A stretch of 64,000 nucleotides of DNA from Dudresnaya verticillata (lineage: Eukaryota): contig OZ374557.1 in NCBI GenBank assembly GCA_977862235.1, positions 744,001 through 808,000 on the forward strand. The letters are read 5' to 3'. The position numbers and the translations under genes are program-made. Below are positions 30,427 through 60,369 of the stretch, one piece after another (within the stretch, counting starts at the first letter, position 1; every line of letters begins with the position of its first letter). The notes below the pieces were generated by a model that worked only from the letters and a program-made list of their open reading frames with translations, was not told the origin of the DNA and did not search any database.

Positions 30427-31052
30427 TGTCGTAATTCCACAGTACTGACTGCTCGACGGAGCAGGACTGTTACGGATAAAGTCATATTGACTTCTAAGGG
30501 CTGCTACGGACAGCAAAATCAGGCCAACGGCCTGATATTCATACAGTGGAGGAGTCGAAAGGCAGCAGAGGTATTATTGATACCTCTATCCTCCTCCACT
30601 ATAGAATATGGGCCAGGTCACCCATGCAGTTTACTTTACCGTCGCTTAAACAAACATTGAACAGCGAAGCCAACTCCACGCTGTAGGAATAGCTTCTAGT
30701 TTGGTAGTGTTTAGACCCATTCCTGGGTGGCGCCATCTAATTTACCCCTCTCCGTTTAGCTTTTACCCCTCTCCGTTTAGTTTTACACAGTCAAGCCTAG
30801 CGCTACAGGACTATAAAGTTGCCGTGAACCAGGAAGCTCCCTACTTCCCAACACCAAGAATTTTACCAACTGCACCTCTCCAGAACTTCGTCAGCTCACC
30901 AGCCGCCGTCGATATCTACCCGGCACTATACGCACCGGCCCTCGCGTGTGTCCCGACCCCTCTCGACTACATACCGTCGAGTAGGGCCGGTTATCATCCC
31001 AACACCAAGACCCGTCCACCTCCGTGGACGAACCCAAGCCGATTTGACTATA
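30427..31052 (+). repeat. 5' LTR of Copia-2
   Basis: Near-identical to 48155-48759 apart from a 21-bp internal duplication. Confidence 0.95.
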
Positions 31053-31288
31053 CAATTCGGATTATACGTCGATCGCAAGAAGACTTCTTTTATTATTTGT
31101 TTCGGGCTACCGTTTCTTCAAGGAATTAACCACTGACTGGTATTCCTTGGAGTAGCAACCCTCAGAATGTTTTCTGGTCTATCACAGACAACAAACGGTA
31201 TTAGAAAACAGTAAATTGATACTTGCTGTATCAAAGCGTCTCTATCAGGAATTAATTACATGGGACTCTAACGTTTTATTTTCTTTTA

Positions 31289-31854
31289 GTGGCGCGTTTG
31301 AAACGAGCCTCTAACGACCCATCTGTTCTGCGAGAGCAACGCAGGAGGGGCGGTATCGAATCGTCAAGTTCATCATCAAGCTACGAAGTACCTACTGCAC
31401 GACCATTAATAGAAGAAGAAGCGCATCAAGCCGGCACGACGAGTATTAATTATACCTCAATCTTCAACTCAGAATCGGATAATAATTCTCATCAAGAACC
31501 AGAGCAGACACAGCGCCAACTGAAGACACTACCTGTTGCCTCGTCTTCAACAATACTGCGCGCTGCTCGCACTATCGAGAAGACTCGCCGTCGACAAAAT
31601 CGCCGCGTTCAGTGCAAGGACTGTGTTCGCGGTTTGTTAACCGGCGCCAATACACAATCCACCTAGGCGGTATCGCGCATCGCAAGGAACTCGACCGAAT
31701 CCACGACGCGCGTTCGAAACACTGCTGCAAACCTTGCGATTTGTCCTTTATTTCCAAGCACGACTACGAAAAGCATATTATAGGCAAGAAGCACAGAAAT
31801 ACGCTACAACGAGCTCGTAATCAAGACCTCGCCGCCAGGCTCAATTATAAGTAG
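31289..31854 (+). pseudogene. Extra ORF upstream of gag with two U1/matrin (zf-met/JAZ-type) C2H2 zinc fingers, one frameshift
   Basis: CKDC.../...QYTIHLGGIAHRK and CKPCDLSFISKHDYEKHIIGKKHR (C-x2-C-x12-H-x5-H). Confidence 0.7.
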
Positions 31855-32011
31855 TAAATAGTTAAACACTTCAAAAAAAGAAAAAAAGGAGGAGGAAAAA
31901 GCGAGAAAAGAGGCGGAAAGAAAAAGGAAGGTAGGACACGAGAAAAACAAAAATAGAAAAAGAACACAAAGTAGAGATAGTCTAATAAAACACACAAAAA
32001 GGCAAGAAAAA

Positions 32012-32977
32012 ATGGTGACTTTAACATCCATCCGAAGTCAATTAAATGGGTATTCCCTGAGCACGGATTTTCAGCAGGATCTCAAAGCGGCCCTCGCTGT
32101 ACACGTTTCAGCCGACCCACAGCCACCTGACGGAGAGACCATTTCAGCTCTCCGCGAGGACTTTCCTGTGGAAACCTTATACGATGAGGATGTGTTGAGA
32201 GGCCCGGCCACACTATTTAGGATTGTCCGGGATTACCTTAGTCTGAAGGGCTTAGTATATCAGCAGCATCCTGATAACAACCGAATCGCCTATGGACTAC
32301 CTAATATGCTCTATACGACCGACGCAGAGCCTAACAGTGCAATCGCCCGTCTTATAGTTGCATCATCGAACGTGAGTCAAATAGGAGAGCAGGGTAACGG
32401 CAGCAATGCACCACACAGTGGTTCTCACTCTTCCACTAGTATAACGGACGAAAAGAAGCTGGCACACAATATTGCCACAAGGTTCAAGAATGCCGACAAG
32501 TTCACGGGAAAACTCGGAGAAGATCTATCCGAACACATCAGCAACTATCTGGATGCCAGTCGCGACTACGATTTGACGAGCTCCCAGAAATTACAGTTCT
32601 TCCACAACGTATTCGATGGAGAAGCAAAAAGGTTTTACCGTGAGAAGGTTTTCGACCACTGCGATACTTTTGGAGCTGCCATTAAACTTATGCAGGATGC
32701 GTTCAACAACATCACGCGTCAGAACCGCGTTCAAAAACACCTCCAAAGCCTACGACTGAACTCCATCGTTAAATCGAAAAGGTGCACCGTAACTGAAGCC
32801 CTTGAGGAACTACGTGAAACCATCACAAAGTTCGCTCCGCAAGGTCTGAAAACCCACCAGTCCCAAGAAGATAAGGTCGAATATCTGTATAAAGCAGTTG
32901 TAGGCGCTAGTTGGGAAAAAGGTCCCCTTACAAACGCCCAGCCTGCTACTCCACCTTGGGACTTTCAGCAACTTTGA
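32012..32977 (+). CDS. Copia gag, C-terminally truncated
   Basis: KFTGKLGEDL...KLQFFHNVFDGEAKRFY gag-like capsid region; position between LTR and RT. Confidence 0.75.
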   Translation: MVTLTSIRSQLNGYSLSTDFQQDLKAALAVHVSADPQPPDGETISALREDFPVETLYDEDVLRGPATLFRIVRDYLSLKGLVYQQHPDNNRIAYGLPNMLYTTDAEPNSAIARLIVASSNVSQIGEQGNGSNAPHSGSHSSTSITDEKKLAHNIATRFKNADKFTGKLGEDLSEHISNYLDASRDYDLTSSQKLQFFHNVFDGEAKRFYREKVFDHCDTFGAAIKLMQDAFNNITRQNRVQKHLQSLRLNSIVKSKRCTVTEALEELRETITKFAPQGLKTHQSQEDKVEYLYKAVVGASWEKGPLTNAQPATPPWDFQQL

Positions 32978-32989
32978 CCTCGATTATCA

Positions 32990-33515
32990 AACCTGGAGAC
33001 CCCAGAGCAAAGACCCTCGCTTCGAAAATGCAAAGAAGAAAAAGATAAAGGGTTTAATAGACAGAGGAACTTGGAAAATAGTTCTAAAAGAGGAGATTGA
33101 AGACAGTGCAAACGTACTAGATGGACGTTTTGTACTCGCAATTAAGGATGAGGGAGCCAACAAAGAAGTTTGGAAGGCCAGGTTCGTCGTACAAGGATAC
33201 AGAGATCGTATGAAAACGTCCTTAGTGCACGATACTGCCACTGCAAGGCAACACTCAACTCACGTTCTTATAGGGATCGCCGCAATGTTCGGTTTCCGTC
33301 TATACACTACAGACGTAACTCAAGCCTACCTCCAAAGCGCCGAGAAACTGATGCGAGACGTATACATAAAACCCTCCGGCGAGTTTGAAGTAGACAAGGA
33401 TCAGTTGTTAAAACTTTTAAAACCACTGTATGGTCTTGCGGATAGTGGAGACTACTGGGGAAACCCCCTTTACGATCACCTCCGGAACGAACTTGGAATG
33501 CGAACAACAGCTTCG
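32990..33515 (+). pseudogene. Copia-2 reverse transcriptase, 5' part
   Basis: GRFVLAIKD...WKARFVVQG, DVTQAYLQS, LLKPLYGLADSGDYW. Confidence 0.92.
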
Positions 33516-34380
33516 TGTGGTGCAAACGTCTGAGACATTAGACCGCCGAGCAGTTCGGGGCTCGGTGGGTAGCTACGCCCTTGGCGGTGGGTAGTCCCGC
33601 CGTGGGCGACTTGTTGGTAGAGCAAAGGACACGCCTTGGGCGGACTGTAAACGCCCGAGGCGGAAAGGAAGGGAAAAGGAAACAGAAAGGGAACACGTCA
33701 ATGACGATGGTAGACGTGGAAGCACGGGAGGTAGACGCTTGAGCCGTAGGCAGCGGTAGGATACGCACGTGCGGAACGGGGAAGTCTGGACTAAGGCCGG
33801 CTTGCCAGGGGTGTACTCAGCGTCTCAGACGGAGTACCTAATATATTACGTGAGCGACGGCGGCGGGCGTGGTGCGCGGGAACTCAGGACGCGTGTCGCG
33901 CCGTCGAGTGTCTGACACGTCGTCGTCGCCATGCAGCCGCGTGCGCGGGAGCTCAGAAGTAGCTTACAGGCGTGCGTGCGAGTAATGGGTGACTTACAGG
34001 CGCATACGTGTAGTAGTGCGGATGATCCGAATTCGGATCCAGATCCCCGCCAGCATTGCTGGCGCGCGGCCATTACAGGCGCGCTCCTTACATCACTGTG
34101 GATCCGGATGCCGGATCCCGATGTCCCATCCGGATCCGATCCGGATCCGGGCCAAGCTTACAGGCGTGTGCCTTGCGCCCGGCCGATCGGGATAATGCAT
34201 CCGGATCTGGCCGTACAGTGTGCATGTGCGCCGCGCCGCGCGGGGTAACGGCGGCCGTATGCCCGTGGGCCAATCGTCTATGACGTGTTCGCGCGCCAAC
34301 GGCGGTTGACGTGCCGTCGGTAGACGTTGGCATATAATACGCTCAGAGCGAAAAAGGGGGAGCCCTCGCCTTGCACCACA
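33516..34380 (-). repeat. 3' LTR of Gypsy-1
   Basis: 10-bp terminal IR tgtggtgcaa/ttgcaccaca; PPT-like GAGGGGG adjacent. Confidence 0.96.
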
Positions 34381-34784
34381 CGACCCCCTCGCAAAACGCG
34401 AACACGTCCGCCGCAAGCTTGCGTTTCTCTGCGGGTCCCACTTCGTCGTGCGTGCGTTCCTGCGTTCCGGCTGTGCCGTGCTAACTTCGCGTGCTGCGCG
34501 TTGCGTCCGGCGAGCTCTCGCTCTCTCGCGCTCTCTTCACCGTTCTTCATCGCCGCTGGCGCATCGTGAATCCCGTCAACGACGCCACATCCAATTCGTC
34601 GCCTGGGGCGTGTCAGTTGCATCGTCGTCGACGAGTTGTGTGAAGTTCATCGCCCAAGGCGCAGGTGCTTCCCGTCTGTGACGCAGCTTCATCGTAGTCG
34701 CCCGTGGCGCGGAACAAAAGGCGTCTTTGACGTAAGCAAAAAGTATAACCGCCTGTGGCGTGGGGCAAGGGTCGTCGTTGACGT

Positions 34785-37408
34785 TTGTTTCACCTTAAGA
34801 GCCAGTGGCGTAAGCGAAGTTGCGTCGTTGACGATATGCCGACGTTCAATGGTGTGCAGGTCGCGGCAGCCTCGGCCGCGCCGGTATACTTATCTCCATA
34901 CGACTTCGTCGGGAAGAACCCGCAGGATCACGGGGACATCTTCGCGCAGGCCCCCTGGTTCGACCAGGAGGCCTTGCGCAATGAGGAGCTCATTGCTCAT
35001 TACGCTACTAGCGGATTTTTGCCGGGGGGACTCCCCCTTGCCGTCGTCTGGACGATGGATTGGAAGTTGCGCGGCGCGGTGCCGGCCGAGTGGCTGTGGG
35101 TTCGCGCAGGGCAATCTCGTACGGGCGTTCATGCCAAGTTCGTCGCAGACGTGTATCGCCGCTCGACGCGTTACCCGTGCTCGGCGTTAACGCCGGCCAT
35201 TTTTGAGTTTGATGCCGGTCAATACCGGACCAATGGCGAGATCGAATATGGGAATCGTCTAGGGACGTTATCGCTCAAACACCTGAGCGTTTCGGCAGAG
35301 CCGCGCATCAGACAGGAGGCCTACCTCCTGGAAGTACGCTGGAAAGCGGATTTCCGTTACCAACACCGAACGGGGACGTTCTTTTGGGAACGGTGCATGC
35401 GTTGGGAATGTGAAACGCGTCGCCGAAAGGGCGTTTTTGTGGCCTACCAGGATATGCAGGTCGATCATATCGAACGCAGTAAGTTGCCTCACTGCTTCGT
35501 GAAGGTACCGCCCGTTTGGCGAGAGTTCGTAATTTGCGAAGGTTTCGCTGCCGAACGTCCTCCGTGTCTCACGTATATCGGGTCGGAGTTAATGACGGAC
35601 CCGTACTCCAAATGGTGGGTGATGTTCTACACCGAATGGGTGGCAAACGTAGCGTACGCATGGATGTGGGAGGTGTATGACACCTTCCGCATGTATTATC
35701 TGCCACCTCGCGTAGTTGCGTCTCTTGGTGGCCTGTACCTAGCTGAGGCGGGTCGAGGAACAGCCAGGAGTTCTGGGATTTGCGCTCAGTAGCGGATGAA
35801 ATTAACTGGAACGACCCGGCGATGGTGCCGTTAGGGAACAACCGTCGTAAGACGAACCGCCCGCGATTCGCGATGAGTCGTACTCACTCCGCCTGTGGCG
35901 ATTGGATCCATTATAATTGTTGAGAGTTGAGAAGTTGGCTTGGTTGCTTACTTGTGTCTACCTCTATTCACTTCAATGTGCGAGGTAACTTATACTACTC
36001 GTGGGTAGCCAAACTCTCTAAAGCTTCAATACTACAAAGGGTAACTCCTACATTTGGTTACCTCCGAATTTGGTGAAGGCCAAATTCGTGTGTATCTCGA
36101 TTGAGGACGCACTGCAGTTGTTACTGCTTTTGACAATAATCCATGGACAAAGCGTCGTACGACGAAGAACGTTGCGGAACGCCATCGCAAAATGGACCGC
36201 TTCACACCGGGTAATCACCCGCGTGGTTTGCGTAAGAGCTGCGACTTTTTCGGTGCTTTTCCTCCGCATTTGAGTGCCTTGATGGCTGAGAAAGATGCTT
36301 TTAACGCCGATGGCGAACCGGGGAACCCGTCTGGGACGGCTGTCGCTACGCCTATGACGGTTCAGTCATCTGCCGAGGCTGCGGCTCCACCATTAGCTGT
36401 GCCGCAAGGGTCTGCTGGTGGTGTTGGGGTATCAGCTGGCTCGCAAGCTGTGGCACCCTTGGACCTTGCGGCTCCCGTCTCGGACGTTGATGGCGATGCC
36501 GTTATGGCGACGCCAATAGTCGAGTCGGCGCCGCCGACAGTAACACCTCAAGGCGTAGTATCAAACGTCATAGACGGATCTGTGAAGGCGCCCTCGGTGC
36601 CAGTCTGGACCGAGGAACAGCGCCGCACCGTGCCCGCCTTATTAAGAGCAGCTGGAGTCGCTACTAGGGGTTTGAGTGGCTCGCCCACTGAGTGGGTGAG
36701 CCAGGCGCTGGCGGCTGCGTCGCGACCCCAGAGTGCTTCGGTGCCGGTGCCGATGGTTGGTGTTGGTTCTGCGTCGAAAGACGGTGCAGATGGAAAGTCG
36801 TCATGCCTAAGGCGACTGGTTCAGCGTCCAAAGACGTAATGGCTACTGTACCGCCAGCGGCGACCGAAGCAGATGTCGCTACAACGTCTCCGACGGTTGA
36901 GGAGGGTCCAGTGGCTCCTGCGTTGATGACGGATATAGAACCAATGACGCCAAATGCGGGTGAGGGGTCAACGTCGGTTCAGACGGTTGCGACAGTTGCG
37001 CCGAAGGCGGTAGGTTCTGCGACGACGCCGAAGGCGAGTGATGAGTTGAACTCTACGCCAAAGGCGGTTGTGGTTGCTTCATCGTCCAAGGGGACAGTCC
37101 CTGCAACGGCGCCGAGGGCGGATGTTATCGGGGCGGCGCCGGAGGCGAATGACCGACTTGGTTCTGCGCCATCGGCGGTTGGCAAAGCCAAAGAGGCTTC
37201 GCCGCCTAAGGCGGGTGGTGAGTCGAACTCTTCGCCAGCGGCGTATATTTCTCCTTCAGCTGTGGCGGTGGCGGTGCCTTTGCGGTCCGTCCCTGTTGCT
37301 GCTGTGGGTGTGCCGTTGGTGACGAAAGACGACCTCTATGAAGAGGCGTTGAGGGAGTCCGCCGAGGGCGATGGTGCGGCGGACTCGGCAAAACCGTCTG
37401 TGACGTGA
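34785..37408 (+). pseudogene. Antisense accessory ORF of Gypsy-1 (Trp-rich domain + Ala/Pro/Val-rich tail), disrupted
   Basis: ORFs 34785-35792, 36192-36839 and 36692-37408; clear homology to 56904-58448. Confidence 0.75.
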
Positions 37409-38040
37409 CCTAGTTAGCGTCGTTTAGGGCGGAAGGCCTTTGCGGGGGTGCGTATTATGGTACCTTGTCGACTCCTTTGCGGAGTCGGGAGGTAGGGCAT
37501 CGTACGTCGTTGACGAATGTGTTGAATGTTTTGCGGCGTTTAGCCGCCGTGGCTTGTAGCTTGGGCGCGGGACTTCCCCGTTGCTTAGCCCGAATACATT
37601 GTATCGTTGGTAACGTAGTTTGGTTTCGTCCCGCTGCAACCGTCGTGTTGCAGCCGTCGCGTTGTAGTGTGTTGCCACCGCGTTTCTTGTTTCATCATGA
37701 CGACGTTATCGTATTAGTCGCCGAGAGACGTTACTTGGGCGTTGTACCTCCCTTCTTTGTTCGCTGCATTAGCGTTGGGTAGCGCGCCAGGGGCGTTTAG
37801 GGGTTTAGCGACGTTGTCGGGGCCGAGCCTCTTGGTTAACTCGCTTAGCGAAGCGTTTCTTTGCGTTGCATTTCCTCCTGCCACGCTCGACGAAGACGTC
37901 ATGGGGGACTCGCTCAGGGCGTTGTTGAGTTCGGACCGCGGCTTGCGCGTGAGTGTGGCCCATTTGCGACGCCTGGGGCGTATTCTCTTCTCGCTTGGTG
38001 CGCTGTACTTAGTTGTGCACGTCGTCGCTGACGGAGGTTG

Positions 38041-38100
38041 GCGTGTGGTAGGTGAGGTCAGCCTGTGGTAGGTGAGGTCAGCGTGTGGTAGATGAGGTCA
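38041..38100 (+). repeat. 20-bp tandem repeat, three copies
   Basis: GCGTGTGGTAGGTGAGGTCA, three near-identical copies. Confidence 0.95.
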
Positions 38101-38877
38101 GAGCCTTGTTCCTCGTCTCTGACGTTTTCTTCCGAGGGTGGGGAATGGTCGTCGCTCGACTGTGGCGGCCATTCCCAGCGGCGGAGCCATTGCGCGATTT
38201 GGTTAGCGATTTGGTTGTGCGTCGTGCACGGAACCGTGATAAACGCGTCCTTGACAAGTCACTCCCCCCCTTTGTCGGCGGGTTTGGCGGCGTGCCCCTG
38301 CTTCGGGAGGTGTGTTGGCGGCGGAGTGCGTGTGTTCGTGCCCGGCCGAGCCGTTCGCTGGCTGGGTAAGGGAAGGCCACAGCGACTTGGCCGTGGCGCG
38401 CGGGCGTGCGGCAACGTCGGAGACGGTTCGTGCGCGTTGCGAAGTGCGTCTGGCGTCGTGCGTGCCGGTAGCACCCGTGTGGCCACCTGGCATACCTTGT
38501 TTGGTATAGTGGTTGATTGTCGGGTAGTGCGCCTCCTCGTTGTTTGCGCATTAAACTTTCGAGCTCTAGTCTGCGTCTGGCAACGGGATTGGTGGGGCGC
38601 GTACCTCTGCGAGTGATCTGGAGCCGCTGTCAGCCACCCTCGCATCCGGGGCGCTGTATGAGGGCCGTTTGGTGTCGCTGTCTTTGACGCCCGCTTTGCG
38701 TTCGGCTCCGTTGGTGACGTGTGTGCTTGGATGTCGCCGACAGCCACGGCGGGTCTGCTCGCGTCCACGTACGTTAGAGGGGGCTTCCACGCCATTGGCG
38801 ACGTTTGCGTCCCCGCGTAGTCTCCGAGTCTCCGAACGTCAGTGCATTCGCTTTTAGCGTTGTTTTCCCGACTGGGG

Positions 38878-40635
38878 TTATCCGCGCTGGGCGTCTTCAA
38901 TATTCGGTGGCAGGCGCGTGTGCTTCCGTCGATGGTACCGCACGGCGTGTGATCGCGGCAAACTGGACACGGGCTCCCAGGTGTTCGCTGAAGCGGGGTA
39001 CCCAAACCACTTGACGCGGTAGAGGATCTCACCATCATCCGCGTATGCGTGCGACTCGATACGTTCGATAACGTATTCCTTCCCGCTCACAGCGATCGGC
39101 TTGGACCGGTGCCCTTCCGGCGCCTTTGGCGGTTCGTCTCGTTGCGTGATGGATGTCTGTGCCGGTTCGGCGAAACGTACTCGACGGGTTGATCGCCGAA
39201 GGCGTTGCGCTTGGGCTTCGGACGCTCGATCAGCGGTCAATGGGCTGCTGCGTCGTGAGACGAGTCCATCGCTTGCAGCGCCTTGCTTCGTGCTTGCACG
39301 GTTAACGTCTTCGTTATCGGACGCGCTTTCAGCGGAGTCGTTGTTCTCATTTGGCGGTGCCGTAGCGACGTGTTCCAAACGGGTGCGAACCCCTGGGGTA
39401 TTGTCGTCGTTGGAGACGGATTGCGAAGCGCGGTCGTCGGGGTCGGCGGCGAAGGGCGAAAGCTCTGCCAACCCACGACTGCGTGGCGTTGCGGTTGTAC
39501 GCTCTTGCGGATCTCCCGCAGTATGCGAAGTCTCTGCGTCCCCCTCCGGGTCCGCTGGTGGCGTGCTTGGGGTAGTCGTCCCTTCGTCCTGTGACGTGGG
39601 GGCGACTGCTTCTTGCTCCTCAGGCGGGCCTGGTGGTACGACGATTGGAGGGGCCGCCTGACCCGGTGGGGTCGGCGCCCAGACCACGCGGTCTCGGGAC
39701 AAACGTTCCCGCTCATCACGTCCCTTGTCGACGGTTACCGTCTCGTTATCAACGTGAGTTACCCGGTATGGTCCGTCCGCCACTTTCGTCAGCTTATGCT
39801 TACGCTCTGCGCGATCCGCGCTCCCGCCTCGGGCGAAGTATTCCTTACGTACGAATACGAAGTCGCCTACGGCGATTGCTTCCTTCGATTTCCTTAATCG
39901 GGTGTCGACGTTTCGTTTGTAACGTGCTTGAGTTTTCTCTAACGACGCTTTAGCGGTTCCCATCAGTGCGGCCAGCCAGGTTCGCCACTTGGTGTAGTAT
40001 TGCCCCGCGGTGGGTACGCTTTCGAGCGAAGGTTCCGCTTCGAGCGACAGTGGCCGTGGTGGCTTAGACAGCACCAATTCAAACGGAGCGAGATGCGTAG
40101 ACGAATGCAACTGTGTGTTGTATGCGAACATCAAGGCATCCGTGAACAGGTCCCAGTCTCTCGGATGATCCGCAACGTAGTGACGCAGTGAGGCCAGGAT
40201 AGTTCGATTAAATCGTTCTACGTGGCCATTGCATTGCGGATGGTACGTCGTGGTGAAGAGATTCTCCACTCCCAAAAGACGGCAGATATCCTGAAACAGC
40301 TTAGCCACAAACTGTGGTCCGTTGACGGACAACAGTTTCTTGGGAGGACCGTACACGAAGACCCAATGTCGTACAAACGCCTTAGCGATTTCCAAGGCCG
40401 TAATACTACGCAGTGGGACCGTCCGGAACAGCTTCGAGAAGCGGTCTACAATGACGAGTAGGAACTTGTTTCCTCGCTTCGTGCGTATGAGTTCGCCCAG
40501 GATGTCGATCGATACGAATTCGAGAGGCTCGGTTGCCGGGAACAACTTCAATTGCTTGGTGTTCTTTCGCAGCAATACGCGATTCTTAGCGCAGGTTACG
40601 CAGTTGCGGACGGTTGCATAGCAGTCCACTGGCAT
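38878..40635 (-). CDS. Gypsy-1 integrase + chromodomain
   Basis: CVTC, VSIDILG, IVDRFSK, YHPQCNGHVERFN and GPY motif; chromodomain EYVIERI...YRVKWFGYPASANTWEP. Confidence 0.95.
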   Translation of the reverse strand: MPVDCYATVRNCVTCAKNRVLLRKNTKQLKLFPATEPLEFVSIDILGELIRTKRGNKFLLVIVDRFSKLFRTVPLRSITALEIAKAFVRHWVFVYGPPKKLLSVNGPQFVAKLFQDICRLLGVENLFTTTYHPQCNGHVERFNRTILASLRHYVADHPRDWDLFTDALMFAYNTQLHSSTHLAPFELVLSKPPRPLSLEAEPSLESVPTAGQYYTKWRTWLAALMGTAKASLEKTQARYKRNVDTRLRKSKEAIAVGDFVFVRKEYFARGGSADRAERKHKLTKVADGPYRVTHVDNETVTVDKGRDERERLSRDRVVWAPTPPGQAAPPIVVPPGPPEEQEAVAPTSQDEGTTTPSTPPADPEGDAETSHTAGDPQERTTATPRSRGLAELSPFAADPDDRASQSVSNDDNTPGVRTRLEHVATAPPNENNDSAESASDNEDVNRASTKQGAASDGLVSRRSSPLTADRASEAQAQRLRRSTRRVRFAEPAQTSITQRDEPPKAPEGHRSKPIAVSGKEYVIERIESHAYADDGEILYRVKWFGYPASANTWEPVSSLPRSHAVRYHRRKHTRLPPNIEDAQRG

Positions 40636-42881
40636 CGATGGCCAATATTATTCGCGTCGAAGCGTATGATACAACTTACGCCCCCTGGGTGCCCTGCCAA
40701 CTTGGCGTGGTGCCGGAGGTGGAGTAAGCGAGCGCGTAACGCGGAGGGTACGACCAATTGCGGACGGACTTCCACTGTTCGGACCAACAGGCCCTGTTCA
40801 TCCGTTGCGAACGGTAAGATTATCCCGTCATCCAGACGTTTCCTGACATCGTTACAGTATTTGTCATCGCCTTGGGCGTGTATCAACTCTTCATGCGTCA
40901 CTTGACGAAGGAGTACCTCATCCGCCGGTGGCGTGTTGTGGATCAACACTTGGTCGAACTCTTCGAACTCTCGTTCGGTGAAGTCGACCTCGCCTTCGGC
41001 GCCTGACAGATCGTCTTGTGACGTTTCATGGCCGTCTTCGACGTAGCTTCCGTGATAGCACGGTATATCATCATCAATGGGCTCGACGGTTTCTCCCTTC
41101 GTCTGTAGACGCGAAAGGGCATCTGCCTGAGTATTCAGGTACCCCTTTTTGTACTTCACGACAAAGTCGAACTCGGAAAGGCGAAGACGCCACCGCATTA
41201 ACCGTCCAGAGGGGTCGCTGATTTCCATCAGCCACCTCAGCGACGAATGGTCCGTATGGACTGTGAACGACTCCATCTGGAGGTAAGGTCGCAGTGTCAT
41301 GACGGACCATACTACTGCGAGGCACTCCTTTTCGGATACCGAGTAATTACGCTCTGGAGTGGTGAGCGAGCGGGACCAGAAGCCGAGCGGCTTACGTTCC
41401 CCGTCGGGCTGCGTTTGAAAGAGAGCGCAGCCGACCTGATACTCGCTTGCGTCACAATCGACGGAATAGGGGAGACCCTGCTGTGGTAGCGCCAGTATAG
41501 GCGGATGAGTCACGGCCTCGACGAGCGTACTGAACGCTTTGGCTTGTGTCTCATCAAACGGTTGTAACCGGAAGTCCTGTTCCTTCCTCAGCAACTTGTT
41601 GAGGGGGGCAGCGACATGCGCGTATCGCGAGACGAACCGTCTGTAGACGTTACAAAGACCGAGGAAACTCCGTAGCTCCTTCTGATCCCGTGGATACTTG
41701 GCTTCGCGTAGCGCGGCAGTGACAGTTCGGTCAACTTCTAACCGTCCTGGACGTATGACGAGGCCTAAGTAGTTGACGGTCGGGGAGAAGAAGTCACACT
41801 TGGTCAACTTCAGAGTCACCCCGGCACGGTGCAATGTCGAAAGGATCTCGTCAACATGACGGAAGTGACTGTCGATATCGCTGGAGAAGATTATTACGTC
41901 ATCGAGGTAGACGAGGCACGAACGCAACTTGTAACCAGCGAGTAGTATGTCCAACGTTCGTTGAAACGTAGCGGGTGCGTTCGTGAGACCGAATGGCATA
42001 CGCTTATAGCGGAACAGTCCGGCGTGGCACGTGAACGCAGTCTTATCGCGGTCTCGCGGATTGATCGGCACTTGCCAGTACCCACTGTTACAGTCTAGGG
42101 TGGTGAAGACGTCTGCTTCGCCTAGACTGTCGATGCATTCGTCGATACGCGGCAGCGGGCACGTGTCTCGTACGGTTACTGCGTTTAAACGACGGTAGTC
42201 TACGCAAAAGCGGAGGGTCCCGTCCTTCTTGGGGGCGAAGACCACTGGTGACGCCCGCAGCGATTGTGCGGGTTCGATAACCCCTTGACGCAGCATGCGG
42301 TCCACTTCCGCTTGAGCGAGTTGTCTTTGCTTCGGCCCAGCTCGGTAGGTCGGGGAAGATATCGGTCTAGAGCCGGGAAGCAAGTCGATGTAGTGCTCCG
42401 TGGTTGAGATTTCTCCCAACGAACCGTCCCACATAGACGAATAGTTGCGTAACATCTCCTTAACCCGGCCTTGATGCTCGGCGGGGAGATGTCCCAGGTC
42501 CAAATCGTCTACTGACGGAGGCTTGGCAGTGGTTGCCTTGATAGACTTCGTGAAAGTATCCGGCTGTGCCGTAGTATCATCGTTCGTTGGAAAACGGAAA
42601 TCTTGGTTCGCCTTCTCTTCCTCGGCCTGTTCCTCTGTGAGGCCCAAAACATCGGCTAGACTTACGTGACTGGGGAACACTGCTGTCGGATGTGGTAACG
42701 CCGTCGCGACGACTTGGCCCTTAGCCAGCGCCTGCAGGCGGGGAGAGAAGTTGGCAACCAGAATGCGAAACGCTTTTAGCGGCTCCGCTTGAGCAATCCC
42801 GTTCGTAACGGCCAGACCTTGTTTGTCGTACAGCGTTCCGAACGGTTGAATTGTGATGATGCCGGCGCGCTCGGTGGTCAC
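40596..42881 (-). CDS. Gypsy-1 reverse transcriptase-RNase H
   Basis: LRFCVDYRRLN, LDCNSGYWQ, MPFGLTNAPATFQR, YLDD, DAS, TDH, ADALSR. Confidence 0.97.
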   Translation of the reverse strand: MTTERAGIITIQPFGTLYDKQGLAVTNGIAQAEPLKAFRILVANFSPRLQALAKGQVVATALPHPTAVFPSHVSLADVLGLTEEQAEEEKANQDFRFPTNDDTTAQPDTFTKSIKATTAKPPSVDDLDLGHLPAEHQGRVKEMLRNYSSMWDGSLGEISTTEHYIDLLPGSRPISSPTYRAGPKQRQLAQAEVDRMLRQGVIEPAQSLRASPVVFAPKKDGTLRFCVDYRRLNAVTVRDTCPLPRIDECIDSLGEADVFTTLDCNSGYWQVPINPRDRDKTAFTCHAGLFRYKRMPFGLTNAPATFQRTLDILLAGYKLRSCLVYLDDVIIFSSDIDSHFRHVDEILSTLHRAGVTLKLTKCDFFSPTVNYLGLVIRPGRLEVDRTVTAALREAKYPRDQKELRSFLGLCNVYRRFVSRYAHVAAPLNKLLRKEQDFRLQPFDETQAKAFSTLVEAVTHPPILALPQQGLPYSVDCDASEYQVGCALFQTQPDGERKPLGFWSRSLTTPERNYSVSEKECLAVVWSVMTLRPYLQMESFTVHTDHSSLRWLMEISDPSGRLMRWRLRLSEFDFVVKYKKGYLNTQADALSRLQTKGETVEPIDDDIPCYHGSYVEDGHETSQDDLSGAEGEVDFTEREFEEFDQVLIHNTPPADEVLLRQVTHEELIHAQGDDKYCNDVRKRLDDGIILPFATDEQGLLVRTVEVRPQLVVPSALRARLLHLRHHAKLAGHPGGVSCIIRFDANNIGHRCQWTAMQPSATA

Positions 42882-42965
42882 CGATACCCATTGCTGCGCC
42901 TTAGGCGGGATGATCGCGCGCTCGGCGACTCGGATCTTGGGCGACGTCCTCCCTTCGGCCTTGCC

Positions 42966-43370
42966 CTATTCCTGTTCCGTTGGCAACGGAGGATACGACA
43001 GGGGTCGGCGCAGCGGGCGGCGCGTTATAGGGACACGAGTCCCGTCATCCAATTCAACCTCGCGACTTCGCGGATATATTGCTTCGACGAAGCGGTCGCA
43101 AAAGTCGCAGCCGAGTATAACCGGCGCAGCGAGTCGTTCGCAAACGATCAGTTCCAACTTGACGACTATCCGTCCTAGACGAACGACCAGGTCGACGGTG
43201 CCTCTTGTCTGGATCGCCTTATTGTTGGCGTCGGCTATGACGGGGAGGCTCTTTGCCACGATGCGCGACCGCGCTTCCAGCGGAATTTCGTCAATGCGAA
43301 TGAAATTCGGACCAGCCCCCGTGTCGAGGACAGTGAGTTTACGTGCCAAGGTCCTAACGGTTGTGCCCAA
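42966..43370 (-). CDS. Gypsy-1 aspartic protease (frameshifted from RT)
   Basis: VLDTGAG and VILGCDF. Confidence 0.9.
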   Translation of the reverse strand: MGTTVRTLARKLTVLDTGAGPNFIRIDEIPLEARSRIVAKSLPVIADANNKAIQTRGTVDLVVRLGRIVVKLELIVCERLAAPVILGCDFCDRFVEAIYPRSREVELDDGTRVPITRRPLRRPLSYPPLPTEQE

Positions 43371-43593
43371 ATCGGCTTACACCCTATAGTTCCTTTTGGC
43401 CATTACGAACAACTGCCCTCGCGCCCGGGGGGCTGGTACCTTCGCCATGGGCGTTTTAATGACGTCTGTGACGACTCTATCCGCCCATTGGCGTCATCAG
43501 TAACTAACTTCGGGCCCTCCTGCCGTGTCAGCACCCGAGGCCTAGGCCTCTCTTCGCGGGGCGACACCCCAGTGTCAGGATTTGGTGCCCGAG

Positions 43594-45968
43594 TTAGTTT
43601 TTCGCCTGCGGCGGTGGTTGTGGCGCTACATAGCGATTGAGCATCGTCGGATGACGTTCTGCCGCGTGCGGCATGGGTCCGCCTCGTGGCAATTGTGGTC
43701 GTGCAGTACGGTGAGCAGCGTCGCGGGTAGCGCGTTCCTTGCAACGTAAATACGCATTAGCGGGGACACCAGCCTTCTCGGCCTCTGTTAGTCCTTCATA
43801 GTTGGTAATAAACTTCATGAAGTCGCTCATGCGGAGGAAGCAGTCCGGCGCGATGTGTCCGCGGGCGTAGCATTGGTGGCATACCAGCTGCCGACGTGCG
43901 TCTTGACGGGGTGGACCTCTTTCTTGCCATCCGGGCCTTGCTCGGTGAACGTGAGGAGCATACTCTGAATAGGGGACGCGTGGCGCGGGTACGACCGAGC
44001 GCCCAAAGGCGAGAGCGGGGTCCATATCCCTTGCTTCTTCGTCGTCGACGTAGCTGTCCGTCGGGAGGGCCGAGGTTGGCACCGACGCTTGCTCGTCTGC
44101 CAAGTACAGATCGCCTTCGGCGTGTGTTTCCATGTCATCGACAGGGTGGCTAACGTCTCGGAACTCGACGGAAGACTCCGCTATCATAGCGCGCGCTCCA
44201 GGCTTTGAGCCTCTCTTCTGTGGACGCAGTACACCTCGGGCATCGCCGATGGCGGATCGCGGTGTGCGTACAGCTTGAGCCGCGGTCAGTAGGTCACGTC
44301 GTGTTGACGCGGAACCGGCCCTGCCGTGTCGTGCGCGGTTAGCATCCCCTTCGTCCTGTGCGAAGTGGACCAGCCGCTCAAATGACAACTCCGTCCTTGG
44401 CGTTTCTTCTCGGAAGCGAGCGACCAGGGACCTGATCGACGGGTCTAACCCGTCGATGTATAGCGTCATCTTTTCCCAGTCGGGATATACGTTACCGCAA
44501 CGAATACACGCACCGGCTAGCCGCATCCCATAGGTCGTCTCGTCCTCGCCTTGCTTCTGGGCAGTCGATCGTAGGGCGAGGACAGCGTCCCTGATCGCCG
44601 CTGGCGTAGCATAAGTACGGAGGAGGTACTGTACCGCCTCCGGATAGAGGACACCCCGCCGCGATGGCGAGAAGACGTCGACTTGACGGAGCGAAATTGC
44701 GTGGCTGCCGTACCTCGCAAGAAGTACGGCAGTGCGACGAACTCTTGGGCTTCGCTCATCTCCAGCGTATCGGCTTCATCCGCGTAACGCGTCAGGAACT
44801 CGAGGACCATGACGGGGTCGCTGCCGTTGAAGGTGGCGTCCTTCATGGTCAGCTCCAAGCGCGTAATATGGTCCTTGACCTTACCCGTGTCGCGCCCTGA
44901 GCGTTTTTGCCCTACGTCTTTGAGACGATAAGTCCTGTACGATAATAACTGATCGAAAAGGGGGTTGGAGGGGCGTAGCTCCTTCAACCCCTTGAACCGT
45001 TTTCCGCGAGGTCTTGCGGCACTGCCGAGAGCCGGGAAGTCGTCGTCTTCAGACGAAGAGTCTGACGACTCTCCGTCACTTGACGAGTTCGACGAGGATG
45101 AGGATGAGTCCCCACGTCGATGACGGTTCTTCTTCCGTCTCTGACGCAGTTTACGACGGCGTCTCTTCCGATCCTTACGTCTGTGACGATCTTCGAATGA
45201 GCTCTCGTCACCCGACGGTGGACTGTTGCGCCACTTGGCGGTTTCGAGACGCTCTAAGCGAGTCGCAAGTCGCTGAAAGCGTTCGCGTGAGCTAAGCTCA
45301 GAATGCGAACGAACCGTTACTGCCGGCGGTGGTTGTGTACCCTCGCCTTGGGCGTTTTGATTCGTCAATAGACGGTCGAGGTCGGATCGAAGCCCTTGTA
45401 GAGCACCGTTCCAATCCTCTTCCAACGTCTGTAGACGACTTGCGATTCCTCCGACACTGTCGTCCAGCAACCCGGCGAATCTAGCGAGCATCGCATCGTC
45501 CTCCCAGACGCACACCTCTCGGATCCGTTCGCGTGGTATCGTTAAGTTACTCACGCGGACGGCCGAGGGTGACGCCGTTGGCGGTTGGCTTTCGCGGTTT
45601 GACCGGTCGGGCGTCCCTTGCGCCCTTTGACTTGGCGACTTCGGCTTAGCCGGCGAACAACCGGCACTGCCGTGGGGAGTGAGGCAACATGCCCCGTGTG
45701 TCAATGGTTCGTCAACGACGTTGCGCTCCACGGAGTGCCCTTGGTCGCCGTAGACGGGGATGGTTGGTTGATCCGGACGTTCCGGTTGTCCCTCGATTAT
45801 TTCGCCTCGTGTTCCGTCTACGACGTCCTGTTGCTCGGCTTGTACTGTATCAGCCGAGTCAACGTAGGAGCGGTAGGTGCGGAGGGCCAATCCCTCGGGG
45901 ACGGAGGTGCGGACGACGACGGGGTTGCGCGTCGGCGGGGGAGGTAATTCTCCTCCGTTGAGCGACAC
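43594..45968 (-). pseudogene. Gypsy-1 gag (frameshifted) with zinc knuckle
   Basis: FNGSDPVMVLEFL capsid-like region; CHQCYARGHIAPDC. Confidence 0.88.
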
Positions 45969-46260
45969 GTGGGAGCCTGCGTGGCCGTGCTCCGGGGTAG
46001 CGTCGGGAACGCCGACGCGATCTCGGGGCTCACGAGGCGCCCAGACCTCGTTGTCATCCGCTGTAGCGACCGTTCAGACACGGGTACACTCCCAGGCGTC
46101 GAAGACGGTCTTCTTGAACTTGGGCCTCGCGACGACGGCGGTCGTGAGGCCATGATACAATCGTAGAGTTGCTTGAACGTCGTGGACGATTAGCGACAAA
46201 CGTTTGAAGACGGAGGGTCGGACGTCGCACGACGGAGTAACTCGTTGAAACGTAGCACAA

Positions 46261-46278
46261 TTCTAGGTTGGGAGACCA
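46261..46278 (-). promoter_or_regulatory. Primer binding site of Gypsy-1
   Basis: TGGTCTCCCAACCTAGAA 2 nt inside the 5' LTR; complementary to a tRNA ending GGGAGA-CCA (Tyr-like, inferred). Confidence 0.7.
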
Positions 46279-46280
46279 GA

Positions 46281-47142
46281 TGTGGTGCGAACGTCTGAGA
46301 CGATAGACCGCCGAGCAGTTCGGGGCTCGGTGGGTAGCTACGCCCTTGGCGGTGGGTAGTCCTGCCGTGGGCGACTTGTTGGTAGATCAAAGGACACGCC
46401 TTGGGTGGACTGTAAACGCACGAGGCGGAAAGGAAGGGAAAAGGAAACAGAAAGGGAACACGTCAATGACGATGGTAGACGTGGAAGCACGGGAGGTAGA
46501 CGCTTGAGCCGTAGGCAGCGGTAGGATACGCGCGTGCGGAACGGGGAATTCTGGACCAAGGCCGGCTTGCCCGGGGTTTACTCAGCGTCTCAGACGGATT
46601 ACCTAATATACTACGTGAGCGACGGCGGCGGGCGTGGTGCGCGGGAACTCAGGACGCGTGTCGCGCCGTCGAGTGTCTGACACGTTGTCGTCGCCATGCA
46701 GCCGCGTGCGCGGGAGCTCAGGAGTAGCTTACAGGCTTGCGTGCGAGTAATGGGTGACTTACAGGAGCATACGTGTAGTAGTGCGGATGATCCGGATTCG
46801 GATCCAGATCCCCGCCAGCATTGCTGGCGCGCGGCCATTACAGGCGCGCTCCTTACATCACTGTGGATCCGGATGCCGGATCCCGATGTCCCATCCGGAT
46901 CCGATCCGGATCCGGGCCAAGCTTACAGGCGTGCGCCTTGCGCCCGGCCGATCGGGATAATGCATCCGGATCTGGCCGTACAGTGTGCGCGTGCGCCGCG
47001 CCGCGCGGGGTAACGGCGGCCGTGTGCCCGTGGTCCAATCGTCTATGACGTGTTCGCGCGCCAACGGCGGTTAACGTGCCGTCGGTAGACGTTGGCATAT
47101 AACACGCTCAGAGCGAAAAAGGGGCCCTCTCCTTGCACCACA
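46281..47142 (-). repeat. 5' LTR of Gypsy-1
   Basis: Near-identical to 33516-34380. Confidence 0.96.
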
Positions 47143-47147
47143 CTTCG

Positions 47148-48128: not shown

Positions 48129-48154
48129 GTTTGTCAAGCGAAAAGTTTTGGGAG

Positions 48155-55835: not shown

Positions 55836-56613
55836 TGTGGTGCAATCCACTCGGTAGAATCGAGGATGCACCTCAGGCGGTTCGGGGGCCTGGCGGTAGC
55901 AGGTGAGGTAGTAGCGGTAGAGCAGGGGAATAGCCCCGTAGTGCGACTGTAAAACACTGCAAGACCGAGAAAGGGGGTTACCCTAGAAAGAAAGAGAAAA
56001 CAAAGGAAAAATAAGAGAAAAACAGGATTCTGTACGATGAAGAAGGGTAGCGTACGTACTGAAGTCCAGCCTAGCGACGGAGTCGATAGGGTAGGAGAGT
56101 ATGTCTCGCTGGGCCCAAGCTTGGCCGTTTACTGTATGAGGGCGCACCTCAGGGCCCTAGTATACTATCTAGGAGGCGGGTGCGCCTTGGTGGTGGATTA
56201 AGGTAGTGGAAGGGGGGCGCGCCACTTGGCATTACGTGGCGCGCGCAAGTCTATAATTATCTACTAAAATATCAACTGTCAGCCTATTGGTAGTGTGGCT
56301 TGATAGTGTGCGCCAAGGAGGCGCACGTACGCACGTGTACGCGTTGTCGTCTTGCGGGGCCATCCTTGCTGGCAGCGGGCGTCGGGCACTGTCAGGCCGG
56401 GCGCCTTACAGGGACACTTCCCCAGTGTCATTGCTGGTGCACTCGCGCGGTGCCAGAGCCTATTACGAAAATTGACTCTGAGCTCAAGCGTACGCGCAGC
56501 GGGTGATCCGCGGGTATCGGCCGTGATGGCTCGTCGTCCGCAGTCGCGTGAGTCGCGGGCGACGTCCATCATGAAGAATTCTTCAGTAGGGCGCGAAGGC
56601 GATTTGCGGCACA
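55836..56613 (-). repeat. 3' LTR of Gypsy-2
   Basis: tgtggtgcaa...ttgcggcaca, adjacent to the polypurine tract; begins exactly where piggyBac homology ends. Confidence 0.8.
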
Positions 56614-56903
56614 TCTCCCCCCGTTAAGCGGCGAGTATCCGCACGAGCCCACACGCTTATTGTCCAGCCCGCGCACTCTGCGACTTGGTGCAGGACGTTT
56701 GGTGTCGTATCGCATTTCGTAACTGCGGAATTTCCGCGTGTTGGTCTTGCGGCGGGCGTTTCACACGATGCCGCCGAACTTCTCGCTTGCGGAGTTGGAC
56801 CGCGTACTACTCACCGCAGAGTTCTGCATTATACCCTACCCCTGCCGACTTCGAGGGCAAAACGTCGTAGCACGACATCATCGAGTTTGCCAACACGCCG
56901 TGG

Positions 56904-58448
56904 ATGTTCCACACGAACTTGGGTAAGCACGACTTGATTGAGCAGTACGTTTCTGCTGATGGTTTCCTACCTGGGGACCTTCCCCTTCGCGTCTTGAGAA
57001 CGCCTGACTGGCGCCGGCGCGGAGCGATTCGTCCTGAATGGATCCGTCTCCATGGCGGTGAGGACGTGCGTAAAGCGTGGCTGCGGTATATCCGCTTGTT
57101 GTTACAACGCTTGACGCGTACGCCGGGTCGTGAGGTCATCCCCCATGGGTATTGGTTAGACCTTGGTGTATACCGCACCGATCGGGAAATCCCCATGCTG
57201 ACGCCCTCGAGTACCTTCCCATCCCGCATGAGTGGGATGGTGTGGAGCCACGTGTCCGTTAGTCTGCCCTCTTGATGGGCATGCAGCTGCGTGCCGAATT
57301 CCGCTTTGTGCGTAAGCGCGATAATAACGCATACTGGGATAAGGTGCGTTGGGAGCGGCGCGCTCGTTCCCGTTTGGGCTCCTTAGTGCCGTACCCAAAT
57401 GTCGAAATCGACGCGATACATCGCAACTACCGGGAGCGGTGTTACGTGCGCCTGCCGGTCCCACAATGGGGTTTGGTGGAGAGTTGTGAGGGATTCCTCG
57501 TTGAACTGGCGCCGGCGGTGAGCTACACCATATGCTCTGTCGTGGGCTACCCGCAGTCGGGACTATGGGTCGTCTATTACACGGAATTAGTGGCGAAGAC
57601 GGCGGTCCAGTGGCTATGGGAACTCTACGACATGTACCGTATGTGGTACGTGTCACCCACAGTCGTGGGGTTCTTCGCCTCGTTGGACTTGAAGATCGTC
57701 CTCGGTGGGATAAACAACGAAGCGGAATTCCGCGTCTTGCTGGGGTTCTACGCCCAGGTTGACTGGGATCGTGACGAGCAGCGCGTCCCGTTACGCAATA
57801 ATAAGAGGAGTTCCTCATCGACCAACTTCTCTCCTGGTCGCCGCCATCCGGTATGTGGCGACTGGGCCTGGCTCGACCCGTGGTCGAGGACCTTCGTTTC
57901 TGTGGACCGTGCCGCTTGGTTACGCAATAATCCGCGCTCGGTGCCCCCGGGCAGCCGCGGGGTTATCTATTATATCCCGAGGCTGGCGGCGTCAACATGT
58001 CGGACCGTGTGGGGGAATCCTCCGACGTGGGTAGCAATGGGAAATCCCCGAAGATGATGCAATGACGGTCGATGCGTCTGTGGAGAAAGACTGCCCGGTC
58101 GCGGCAGCGCCTACCGCAGCGGATGTCCCGGTTGTGACGGCGGAAGCGGCGGTTGACACGGGTGAGGCCAGTGGCGGCGCCAGCGGCACTGTGCTTGCGA
58201 GCGTGCCAACCGTTCGGCCGCCAGCCATTCGGCCGCCGTCTCCTGACCCTGAGAGCCAGCCTCGCGCACGTCGCGTGCGACTGAGCTTCAGTCAGCGTAT
58301 TGCCGTGATCGGCTTTCTGCGTCGGACGGGAATTCCCGAGATGGCCATCCGCGTCAGCGACGAGGAGCTCCTCGAGGCTGCTGTGGACAAGGGGTATAAC
58401 CCGGATGCCGAGGATGAAGCGGGCCCAAGCGGGCCTGCAGATATCTAG
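56904..58448 (+). pseudogene. Antisense accessory ORF of Gypsy-2, frameshifted
   Basis: Homologous to 34785-37408 (GFLPGDLPL, DWRRRGA, CEGF, YTE, CGDW). Confidence 0.78.
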
Positions 58449-59394
58449 TCGAGCGCCGACATATGGTGTGGGGCAACCGACCCTGTGGGAGTAGCCCATG
58501 CGCTGTAGTAGGGAGAGCGTCGCCATGATCAGGACTTATTAATTTGCTTGTTTGTTGCCTTGTTTGCCGTAATGCGGCGCGTCGCTTTTAGGGGAGTTTC
58601 CCTGAGAGGTGGTGAGGCGTAAAGATTCGCATAGGCAGCTGTCGGCGGGCGACGGGGTCGCGATATGTCGTCATTGAGGCATATGCCGCGCAGCGTGGAA
58701 GTCCACATATCGTAAGGGGCTTGCACGTAGATGTGCCCCGACCACTGGGCGTGCGGTTGCTCAAGGCTGTTGGCGGCTAAGAGCGGTATGTACGGATTTC
58801 CGTTTTGGGCCTGGCTCGCAATTCCAACTTAGTCGTGAACGACTTGGGGGAGGAGGTGAGGTGTACTTGCGGTCGTCCACTAGGGTGGGCCGCTGTGTGG
58901 GCACACGACAGGTGATTGGTGCGGGATGCGTCGGCACCATGATTATCCAATGGGTATTCATGGAGTGGCGCACGGCACGTGACTTGAATGCCCACTGCGG
59001 CGGGCACAGTAGACCAAACGCGTACTGTGGTCTAGCCACATTAATTGGGTATACAGAAGTCTGTTGTCGCGTTTGTTTGCCTATGTTGCATGCTGACCCG
59101 TTCGCGTCAGCGCCTACCTGAGTAGTTGGGCGATAGGGCGATCCAGCCCGTCAACGTCGAGTCGAGTTCGACGTGAGAAAGGGCGTAGCCGTCTAGATAA
59201 GTGGAATGCCACGCTAATTAGTGGCATGCCCACTGTAGGGGTGCCGAAGGGCTTAGGCGCGAACGCTCGGTCGTGTGTAATACCACTTATGTCAAACGCT
59301 TGTAGCGGTAGATGCCACATGAGCACACGCAGGCGGAGGTACCCCCTTATCGTTGGAGAAGGGGCACACCTGTCTACCAGTGGCTCGTGGTTAG

Positions 59395-60075
59395 CGTTTA
59401 CGGAATTCCGTTCAGCATAGTTTGCTTTTGTAGCGTTCGCCGTAGACGCCAGGGAGGTGGCGGCAGTAGTCGGCTGAGGCCTTTGTAGGGGTGTTCCCCA
59501 GTTGTTGTGTGTAAAAGGGATTTCGTGGGACTCCACATCTTAGCGAGGTAGGGGGGTCGCGTCGGGTCCGATGAGTGCACATTGCGGTGTGGAATTCCAC
59601 TTTTTGTATACACTCTGCGTGAAGGTGCCCCCTTCCCATGGGGGAGCGGATGCCTAGGGCCATCGACGGCTCACGGTAGGGGCTACCGAATACCATGTGA
59701 GGCATAATTGCATTTGGGTTCGCTGACCCATGCGTGGCGGCATCGGCCCTATGATTACGGAATTCCATTGTAAGCATAACTGCTTTGGTAGAATCCGCCG
59801 TAGACGGCTCGGGGGCAGCTGTGGTGCGCGACTGCGCTTTGCGTCGGTCTGTACAGGGTTGTTCCCCTTTGTATTCGCCAACAAGGGCGTTGTGGGGAGC
59901 CTCATATCAGCGGGGTATTGAGCGTGGCGTTGGTTTGACGCGAATGTCCCGCGATGCGGAATTCCGCTTTTTGTGTACAACCTGCGTCAAGGCGTTCCCC
60001 TTCGTATGGGGGAACGCCAGCTCAAGGCCGTTGGTGGCTAGGAACAATCGTCACGGAATCCCGTTTTGTGCATGC
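59395..60075. repeat. Diverged ~360-bp tandem duplication in the Gypsy-2 3' region
   Basis: GGAATTCC-anchored blocks at ~59401/59759 and ~59591/59958 align. Confidence 0.7.
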
Positions 60076-60369
60076 TCGCGTCGTTGACTTAGTCGTATCC
60101 GACTTTGGGAGCGACGATGGCGATCAATTGCGGCAGACCGCTAGGGTGAGTGGGTGCGCGTGGGGAAGCTCTGATTGGTGCGGTGATAATTATTATCGTG
60201 GCCGAGCAATGAGATACGATATTGTGGCGTACAGTACTCCCATCGTGTGTGCGGCAGCTACTGTGGCATCGACTCCCCAATGTGGTATGTCCACTCCATG
60301 TGTGACTTAGCAGATATCTGCACACTTGCTATTTTGGGAGGCTAGCCCACCATGGCCTTTGTAATGGTG

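Follow-up and report, generated by a model that had tools for sequence, protein, structure and literature searches.

The region between the integrase gene and the 3' LTR of Gypsy-1, a retrotransposon found in the 64,000-nt stretch of DNA analyzed here (the window), carries a gene oriented antisense to gag-pol. Our results show that this antisense gene is real and was once selected, and that it is broken in both copies present in the window, those of Gypsy-1 and of a second element, Gypsy-2. By its layout, the ORF belongs to the aORF-3R class, and it is conserved across diverged elements. We interpret its product, with a probability of roughly 0.45, as a nucleic-acid-binding accessory factor that likely promotes expression of the element against host silencing.

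Gypsy-1 occupies positions 33516-47142 on the minus strand and is delimited by paired LTRs with TG..CA ends (3' LTR, 33516..34380, with repeated GGATCC and TTACAGGCG motifs; 5' LTR, 46281..47142). The LTRs are 96.5% identical and differ by 16 transitions, 9 of which fall in CpG, and 11 transversions. The target duplication CTTCG lies outside each LTR, a purine run (polypurine tract, PPT, 34381..34393) immediately precedes the 3' LTR, and a PBS-like sequence starting with TGG (46261..46278) is present. A putative gag in two overlapping frames (43597..46073) was assigned from its location and a zinc-knuckle-like Cys/His motif, and gave nothing above noise in a Pfam scan. Pfam identified protease, RT and RNase H (40599..43376), with a frame shift into the integrase ORF, and an integrase with a C-terminal chromodomain (38881..40647, chromodomain at about 38956-39075; PF00665, E 8e-10; PF00385, E 5e-10), all on the minus strand. 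The best matches of pol among PDB sequences include Ty3 Gag-Pol (E 6e-84), and the chromodomain can be aligned to those of Clr4 and HP1. The order PR-RT-RH-INT, spread over several frames (Pfam matches to PR, RT, RNase H, rve and chromodomain), is the Ty3/Gypsy arrangement and, together with the LTRs, target duplication, PBS and PPT, identifies Gypsy-1 as a Ty3/Gypsy LTR retrotransposon. An earlier note on this DNA had called it a chromovirus. The chromodomain-bearing Ty3/Gypsy element is confirmed, but a chromodomain by itself does not prove membership in the chromovirus clade, because chromodomain Gypsy lineages exist outside the chromoviruses in Ectocarpus, according to the accessible part of PMC12477816. 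The distance separating the integrase stop from the 3' LTR, given as ~4.5 kb, was measured at 4,496 bp.

The window is repeat-rich and contains Copia, Gypsy, Helitron and DDE remnants. Gypsy-1 is the innermost part of a three-level nest (30198-48896): a Gypsy-1-related LTR, 76% identical to that of Gypsy-1 and split into two parts at 30198-30426 and 48761-48896, contains a Copia element (LTRs 30427-31053 and 48155-48760, ATTGC duplicated), and Gypsy-1 sits in the Copia pol. Elsewhere we observed a plus-strand Helitron (19800-25417) with Rep and PIF1 helicase matches in several frames, preceded by a long 21-bp tandem array, as well as a 1.4-kb repeat in two inverted copies (18122-19511 and 51966-53399, 89% identical) with CAG and T-rich tracts. 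A plus-strand argininosuccinate lyase fragment (5264-7121; PF00206 and PF14698) directly follows a Copia LTR (1301-1542 / 5015-5245).

From position 55836 onward, the arrangement of Gypsy-2 is that of Gypsy-1, its 5' part lying beyond the window. Its minus-strand 3' LTR (55836..56613), whose partner also lies beyond the window, was bounded by inference from its TG..CA tips and the adjoining purine tract. The frame of a minus-strand piggyBac-like DDE transposase remnant (54871-55982; PF13843, E 8e-14) runs into the end of this LTR, and because of this overlap Gypsy-2 likely landed in the remnant. The LTRs of the two elements had been described as dissimilar except at their tips, and indeed only the 10-bp tips match, all other local matches having E>=0.08.

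Short repeats were found in the Gypsy-1 LTR and in the non-coding spacer of Gypsy-2 (58449..60330), which carries a repeated GGAATTCC-type palindrome. In each, the top 8-mer occurs 5 times, a count that none of 100 shuffles reached. The same shuffle test gave no motif enrichment in the Gypsy-1 spacer or the Gypsy-2 LTR, and in a Copia LTR used as a control the top count was reached in 3/100 shuffles. The GGAATTCC-type palindrome recurs every ~170-200 bp at 59400-60100 in the spacer, and these repeats are a possible candidate for a protein-binding array. CpG depletion was seen in neither Gypsy-1 nor Gypsy-2.

The antisense ORF lies on the plus strand, opposite to gag-pol, between the integrase stop and the 3' LTR, in agreement with the earlier note. 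However, the segment 34785-37408, taken at that time for one ORF, actually consists of four frame pieces and a 218-bp insertion. The first piece (34836..35746) encodes the first ~300 aa of the conserved domain, matches the leave-out profile (the family profile built without the window rows) with E 1.4e-96, and shares 36% identity with an intact relative, P0005. A frame change occurs near 35745. The frame of the first piece stays open, out of register, until a stop codon at 35790-35792, and the CGDW motif is found in a different frame, at the end of the second domain piece (35747..35917; leave-out profile E 6e-8; tblastn to Gypsy-2 E 6e-7). The insertion (35918..36135) has TG..CA ends and a 5-bp target duplication, ATAAT; it is likely a solo LTR from a different element, and no further copy was found within the window. 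The third piece (36136..36839) holds the end of the domain, followed by a low-complexity linker; a candidate two-helix motif lies at about 36600-36725. It shares 35% identity over 40 aa with another relative, P0015 (E 0.006), and matches the whole-family profile with an E of 2e-7 that is in part compositional. A second frame change is located near 36800, and translation in a further frame (36692..37408) gives an Ala/Pro/Ser-rich tail that has no match in a Pfam scan.

The Gypsy-2 copy (56768..58448, plus strand) is likewise in pieces (leave-out profile E 3e-29 and 2e-81) and shares 49% identity with P0005 over 225 aa. Two in-frame stops (near 56869 and 57261) interrupt it, and its frame changes at three points, near 56815, 57190 and 58035. 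Of 22 columns that are strongly conserved in the family, 4 have a deviating residue in the Gypsy-1 copy. Both window copies are likely pseudogenes, like their pol genes. At the start of the window, a 367-aa plus-strand open frame that runs off the edge (3-1103) has an aromatic N-terminal part and an Ala/Pro-rich tail; by eye it resembles the C-terminal half of the family, neither the family profile nor blastp matched it, and it could be the ORF of a distant third element.

The motif pairs quoted earlier for Gypsy-1 and Gypsy-2 are all present, and the two antisense proteins share 38% identity over 307 codons (pS 0.75, dN 0.62). Identity at codon positions 1, 2 and 3 is 0.54, 0.62 and 0.36, with a 95% bootstrap interval of 0.20-0.33 for the gap between positions 2 and 3; the alignment was made at the protein level, which somewhat favors this pattern. 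The match of 62% at second versus 36% at third positions indicates past protein-level selection. Where the residue is identical in both copies, 27 of 55 fourfold sites still agree, so that dS is high but has no exact value. Furthermore, the three aligned blocks score 196, 261 and 107, against 50, 58 and 45 for the best of 300 codon shuffles each, that is two to four times the best shuffle. The spacers of the two elements show no similarity at the protein level (best scores 49 and 56). The codon-position pattern and the shuffle tests thus agree with the earlier proposal that conservation between Gypsy-1 and Gypsy-2 implies selection. For integrase and RT/RNase H, the same pair of elements gives a dN of 0.23 and a pS of 0.83-0.85. 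With a dN of 0.62 versus 0.23, the antisense gene has evolved about 2.7 times faster than pol. Accessory genes often evolve faster than pol.

To recover relatives, a four-sequence profile was run against 1.84 billion representatives of clusters formed at 50% identity. This search revealed 795, 325 and 95 clusters at E<=1e-3, 1e-10 and 1e-30, respectively, and the account of members below draws on the best 150 of the 795. With 795 clusters at E<=0.001, the term lineage-specific used in the earlier note understates the extent of the family. Many members are intact, and of the best 150 plus P0001, 48 are 480 aa or longer. The family consists of a ~385-aa core with variable low-complexity flanks, and 76 core sequences have a median pairwise identity of 30%. 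The ~300-aa alignment reported earlier holds for the 307 codons aligned here, but in intact relatives conservation extends further, over about 385 aa. The protein is also only moderately Trp-rich (14/302 residues, 4.6%; family median 3.9%). One cluster contains six full-length members of 648-659 aa on separate contigs, 5-9 residues off the representative and 98-99% alike, which would fit either a young multicopy family or one species sampled repeatedly. Lookup of 21 clusters yielded only two named relatives, the Agarophyton chilense "unnamed protein products" CAN8076099.1 and CAN8075293.1. These point to a likely red algal host but, sharing only about 30% identity with the window protein, not to a particular species. 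Word-index protein searches with the antisense ORF returned 1, 0 and 3 proteins, and locus scans with the ORF found no relative in metagenome, viral or prokaryote genome contigs.

We then considered the fold of the protein. AlphaFold2 predicted the structure of intact P0005 from an input of P0005 and 103 of 151 sequences, mostly the longer ones, with a pLDDT of 92.7 and a pTM of 0.91 (five models, 91.4-92.7). In this model residues 1-385 are ordered as one large single domain made mainly of helices and long loops. Foldseek returned no PDB entry at E<=0.001. A wide VIA search among 48,161 chains gave a best Z of 2.3 (rmsd 5.5 over 98 residues), and a second look gave 0/67 at Z>=2. The typical best VIA Z for unmatched models is 7-8, and this unusually low value therefore suggests a new fold, with the caveat that a missing match is no proof of one and that small domains may go unnoticed in a model of 411 residues. 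The model thus suggests that the ~385-residue domain adopts a fold absent from the solved structures searched. A homodimer prediction run without an alignment scored 0.00 and gave no verdict.

Sequence libraries gave a similar picture. Among 103 members, Pfam gave only two single-member scores, to MBD (E 0.0039) and GGN (E 0.0052), both taken as noise, with no TRP28 (PF04195 Transposase_28; 0/103 at E<=0.01), no SMC, and no second domain beside the core in any of the 103. The best E was 0.04-0.05 with NCBIfam and PHROGs (6 members) and 0.17 in a profile search of PDB sequences, and the ESM Atlas gave a best value of 0.81 and otherwise no usable match. The domain had been described as unrecognized, and family libraries and fold searches alike gave no significant match; the structure search suggested at that time and the comparison with described retrotransposon domains (Foldseek, VIA and Pfam) found none either. 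Distinct from TRP28, the domain seems to be undescribed and forms a large new family within a known architecture.

The most distinctive feature of the core is an arginine-rich conserved segment (family positions 156-183; 35340..35432 in the window, plus strand), which forms a helix at 167-182 in the model. Positions 150-210 have a median net charge of +7 in 96 members, compared to about -2 to +3 for other segments, and R160, R/K164, R173, R176 and R179 are basic in 84-92% of these members, around an invariant glutamate. We regard this segment as a putative nucleic-acid contact. Taken over its full length, the core is close to neutral (median net charge +2 in 76 cores) and conserved acidic columns are nearly as numerous as basic ones, so the arginines may alternatively be buried in salt bridges or catalytic. 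NLS-like motifs occur in 18/48 long members, which is no enrichment given shuffles with a mean of 13.75 and a maximum of 21.

A two-helix motif near the C-terminus is present in only 27 of 57 long members and was folded as two helices with a pLDDT of 77.9. Among 50 rows of its fold search, five were SAP/LEM/Rho-N chains; with Z 3.5-3.8 these tie with unrelated hairpins, and the best row (Z 4.9) is an unrelated protein. At the sequence level, one of 30 members matched Ish1 (E 0.066), and the window tails were missed by a profile of the motif from which the window rows had been left out.

The segment between the LTR and the antisense ORF of Gypsy-1 (34381..34835, plus strand) is a putative 5' UTR with 0 ATG in 454 nt, compared to a shuffle mean of 2.9 (P(0)=0.027). 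In both elements the ATG of the ORF is the first plus-strand ATG past the LTR, over 154 nt in Gypsy-2 (P about 0.23). This ATG-free leader fits a putative transcript starting at the end of the LTR.

In the mechanism that we favor, the once-selected accessory gene, antisense between pol and the 3' LTR of a chromodomain-bearing Gypsy that is likely of red seaweeds, would give a transcript that starts within the 3' LTR or close to it and is translated from its first ATG. The product would be a soluble ~385-residue domain, predicted without a known fold, whose arginine-rich helix may contact DNA or RNA, and whose disordered linker and two-helix tail may recruit or tether it to a chromatin partner. 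Intact copies would act in trans, so that single inserted copies such as these two could decay. We favor an anti-silencing role because of the conserved basic helix, the faster evolution compared to pol, the element-specific repeats and the existence of precedents. Against this role stand the lack of NLS enrichment, the near-neutral charge of the core as a whole, the presence of the two-helix tail in fewer than half of the long members, the missing motif enrichment in the Gypsy-1 spacer and the Gypsy-2 LTR, and a CpG content that is not depleted although 9 of the 16 LTR transitions fall in CpG. A broader version, in which an ancient and very large accessory family with a new fold, borne by Gypsy elements of red seaweeds, recognizes element motifs or RNA and counters silencing, is proposed only tentatively.

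Antisense 3' ORFs have been described in Grande, RIRE2, Retand, PvRetro13 and Boty, with their function and origin left open in the accessible parts of PMC7264820 and PMC11963269. The same sources mention that nucleic-acid binding has been proposed for such proteins, and PMC7264820 describes the Grande antisense protein as nuclear, with its own promoter. Like the aORF-3R elements (Grande gene23, RIRE2, Retand TRP28 PF04195, PvRetro13 and fungal Boty), Gypsy-1 and Gypsy-2 carry the antisense ORF between pol and the 3' LTR, with family-wide conservation and short repeats in this region (PMC11963269, PMC7264820, as far as accessible). The pol-LTR region is also long, 4.5 kb in Gypsy-1 and 2.9-6.6 kb in Retand according to these sources. 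Unlike Retand, a non-chromovirus of flowering plants, Gypsy-1 and Gypsy-2 have a chromodomain and likely come from a red alga; unlike Retand TRP28, their product lacks PF04195 and has a ~385-aa domain with a confident predicted fold without structural match.

More distant precedents come from other elements. The anti-silencing protein VANC, an accessory factor encoded by VANDAL DNA transposons of Arabidopsis, also involves element-specific short repeats in non-coding DNA according to PMC5735166. The present element is a retrotransposon, and its protein showed no conserved Cys/His set and no similarity in the Pfam and PDB searches, a result that leaves room for a family relationship; the analogy is functional only. 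Red algal Plavaka DNA transposons carry putative chromatin-modifying accessory genes, PAG1-3, of which PAG1 has no known domain, according to the part of 10.1101/2025.02.11.637652 that is accessible. The antisense family resembles them as an accessory gene of red algal transposable elements; unlike PAG2 (methylase/SET) and PAG3 (ParB/2OG), it has no such domains, and the comparison with PAG1 is by description only. We also propose an analogy of layout with HTLV HBZ and APH-2, antisense regulatory genes driven from the 3' LTR region in the accessible accounts of PMC11963269 and PMC7264820, to which no sequence similarity was found. In the literature outside Repbase and subscription journals, we found no description of the antisense ORF, nor is it described in the accessible parts of PMC6317226, PMC6431247, PMC6338049, PMC9861306 and PMC2774666.

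It is unlikely that the protein instead binds genomic RNA or the particle and serves export, packaging, nuclear entry or passage between connected algal cells. The basic helix would suit RNA binding by such a factor, the protein is soluble and without a transmembrane segment, and retroviral accessory factors are cited as models for antisense ORFs in the accessible part of PMC7264820. However, none of 19 rows from the viral proteins of BFVD reached E<=0.001 in the Foldseek search with the P0005 model, and a transcription unit of its own on the antisense strand, as proposed here, would point to expression that is independent of gag-pol.

That the protein is an enzyme with a new fold, whose substrate would be nucleic acid or chromatin, is rather improbable. 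Its catalytic site would be drawn from near-invariant Asp, Glu, Arg and Tyr residues: D112 (92%), R117 (97%), E121 (93%), E175 (97%), R176 (91%), R179 (92%), E216 (93%), Y231 (98%) and D343 (86%). Conservation of 86-98% from D112 to D343 at a median identity of 30%, within a large single domain, speaks for this reading. Conversely, no Cys or His column is conserved above 45%, there is no known catalytic motif or fold, and many conserved positions are Trp, Pro, Gly or Leu, as expected of a folding core.

A mobile cassette or captured host or viral gene common to several transposon types, of which PAG1 would be an example, and whose link to Gypsy would be only partial, is distinctly improbable. 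Plavaka accessory genes move among red algal transposable element families and PAG1 is domainless, in the accessible part of 10.1101/2025.02.11.637652. In addition, the two Agarophyton relatives are annotated as gene models, and the context was seen for 3 copies as compared to 795 clusters. The third copy comes from a metagenome scan with the integrase, in which 14 loci were recovered and one (L009) carried an ORF fragment; the 8 close integrase loci are only 1.0-3.0 kb long, most stopping short of the place of the ORF. Scans of viral contigs with integrase and RT found none. The 1,044-nt L009 locus encodes an integrase core, a chromodomain and then, on the minus strand, the family fragment. 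Its fragment, a weak case, scored E 0.004 among 4,230 segments, with a best shuffled value of 0.22, and was overlooked by the four-sequence profile (E 0.57). The locus is internally deleted (16-1044), the integrase core jumping to the chromodomain, and the antisense fragment lies ~130 nt beyond. Against the cassette, all three copies with context (Gypsy-1, Gypsy-2 and L009) lie on the same strand and at the same place, antisense behind a Gypsy chromodomain integrase. Moreover, the ORF is as synonymous-saturated as pol (pS 0.75 vs 0.83-0.85), which fits a long joint descent, and 0/103 members carry another domain.

The location between pol and the 3' LTR is that of env, but an envelope-like or membrane protein is highly improbable, because the ORF is antisense to pol and simple hydropathy screens found a transmembrane-like window in only 2 of 76 cores and no signal-like N-terminus among 48 long members, in line with the earlier view that it is not env-like. 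Both window copies are broken, as they might be were there no gene but only chance similarity or the shadow of conservation on the other strand, an idea whose probability is negligible given the plus-frame scores (in both blocks the plus frame scores highest and no other frame is free or nearly free of stops), the shuffles, the intact relatives, the confident fold and the 0 matches in an Rfam scan of 33000-64000.

Even if the anti-silencing reading were wrong, the family would still contribute what is likely a new fold, as well as a marker with which red algal repeats now listed as unnamed genes could be annotated. With hundreds of diverged members and naturally intact young copies, it constitutes a tractable case for antisense 3' ORFs, and it also comes with a confidently modeled structure and a small set of conserved residues. 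If an accessory factor acting against host silencing is indeed what these genes encode, they would form an anti-silencing system encoded by the retrotransposons themselves, and such a system could help to account for the growth of red algal genomes driven by LTR elements.
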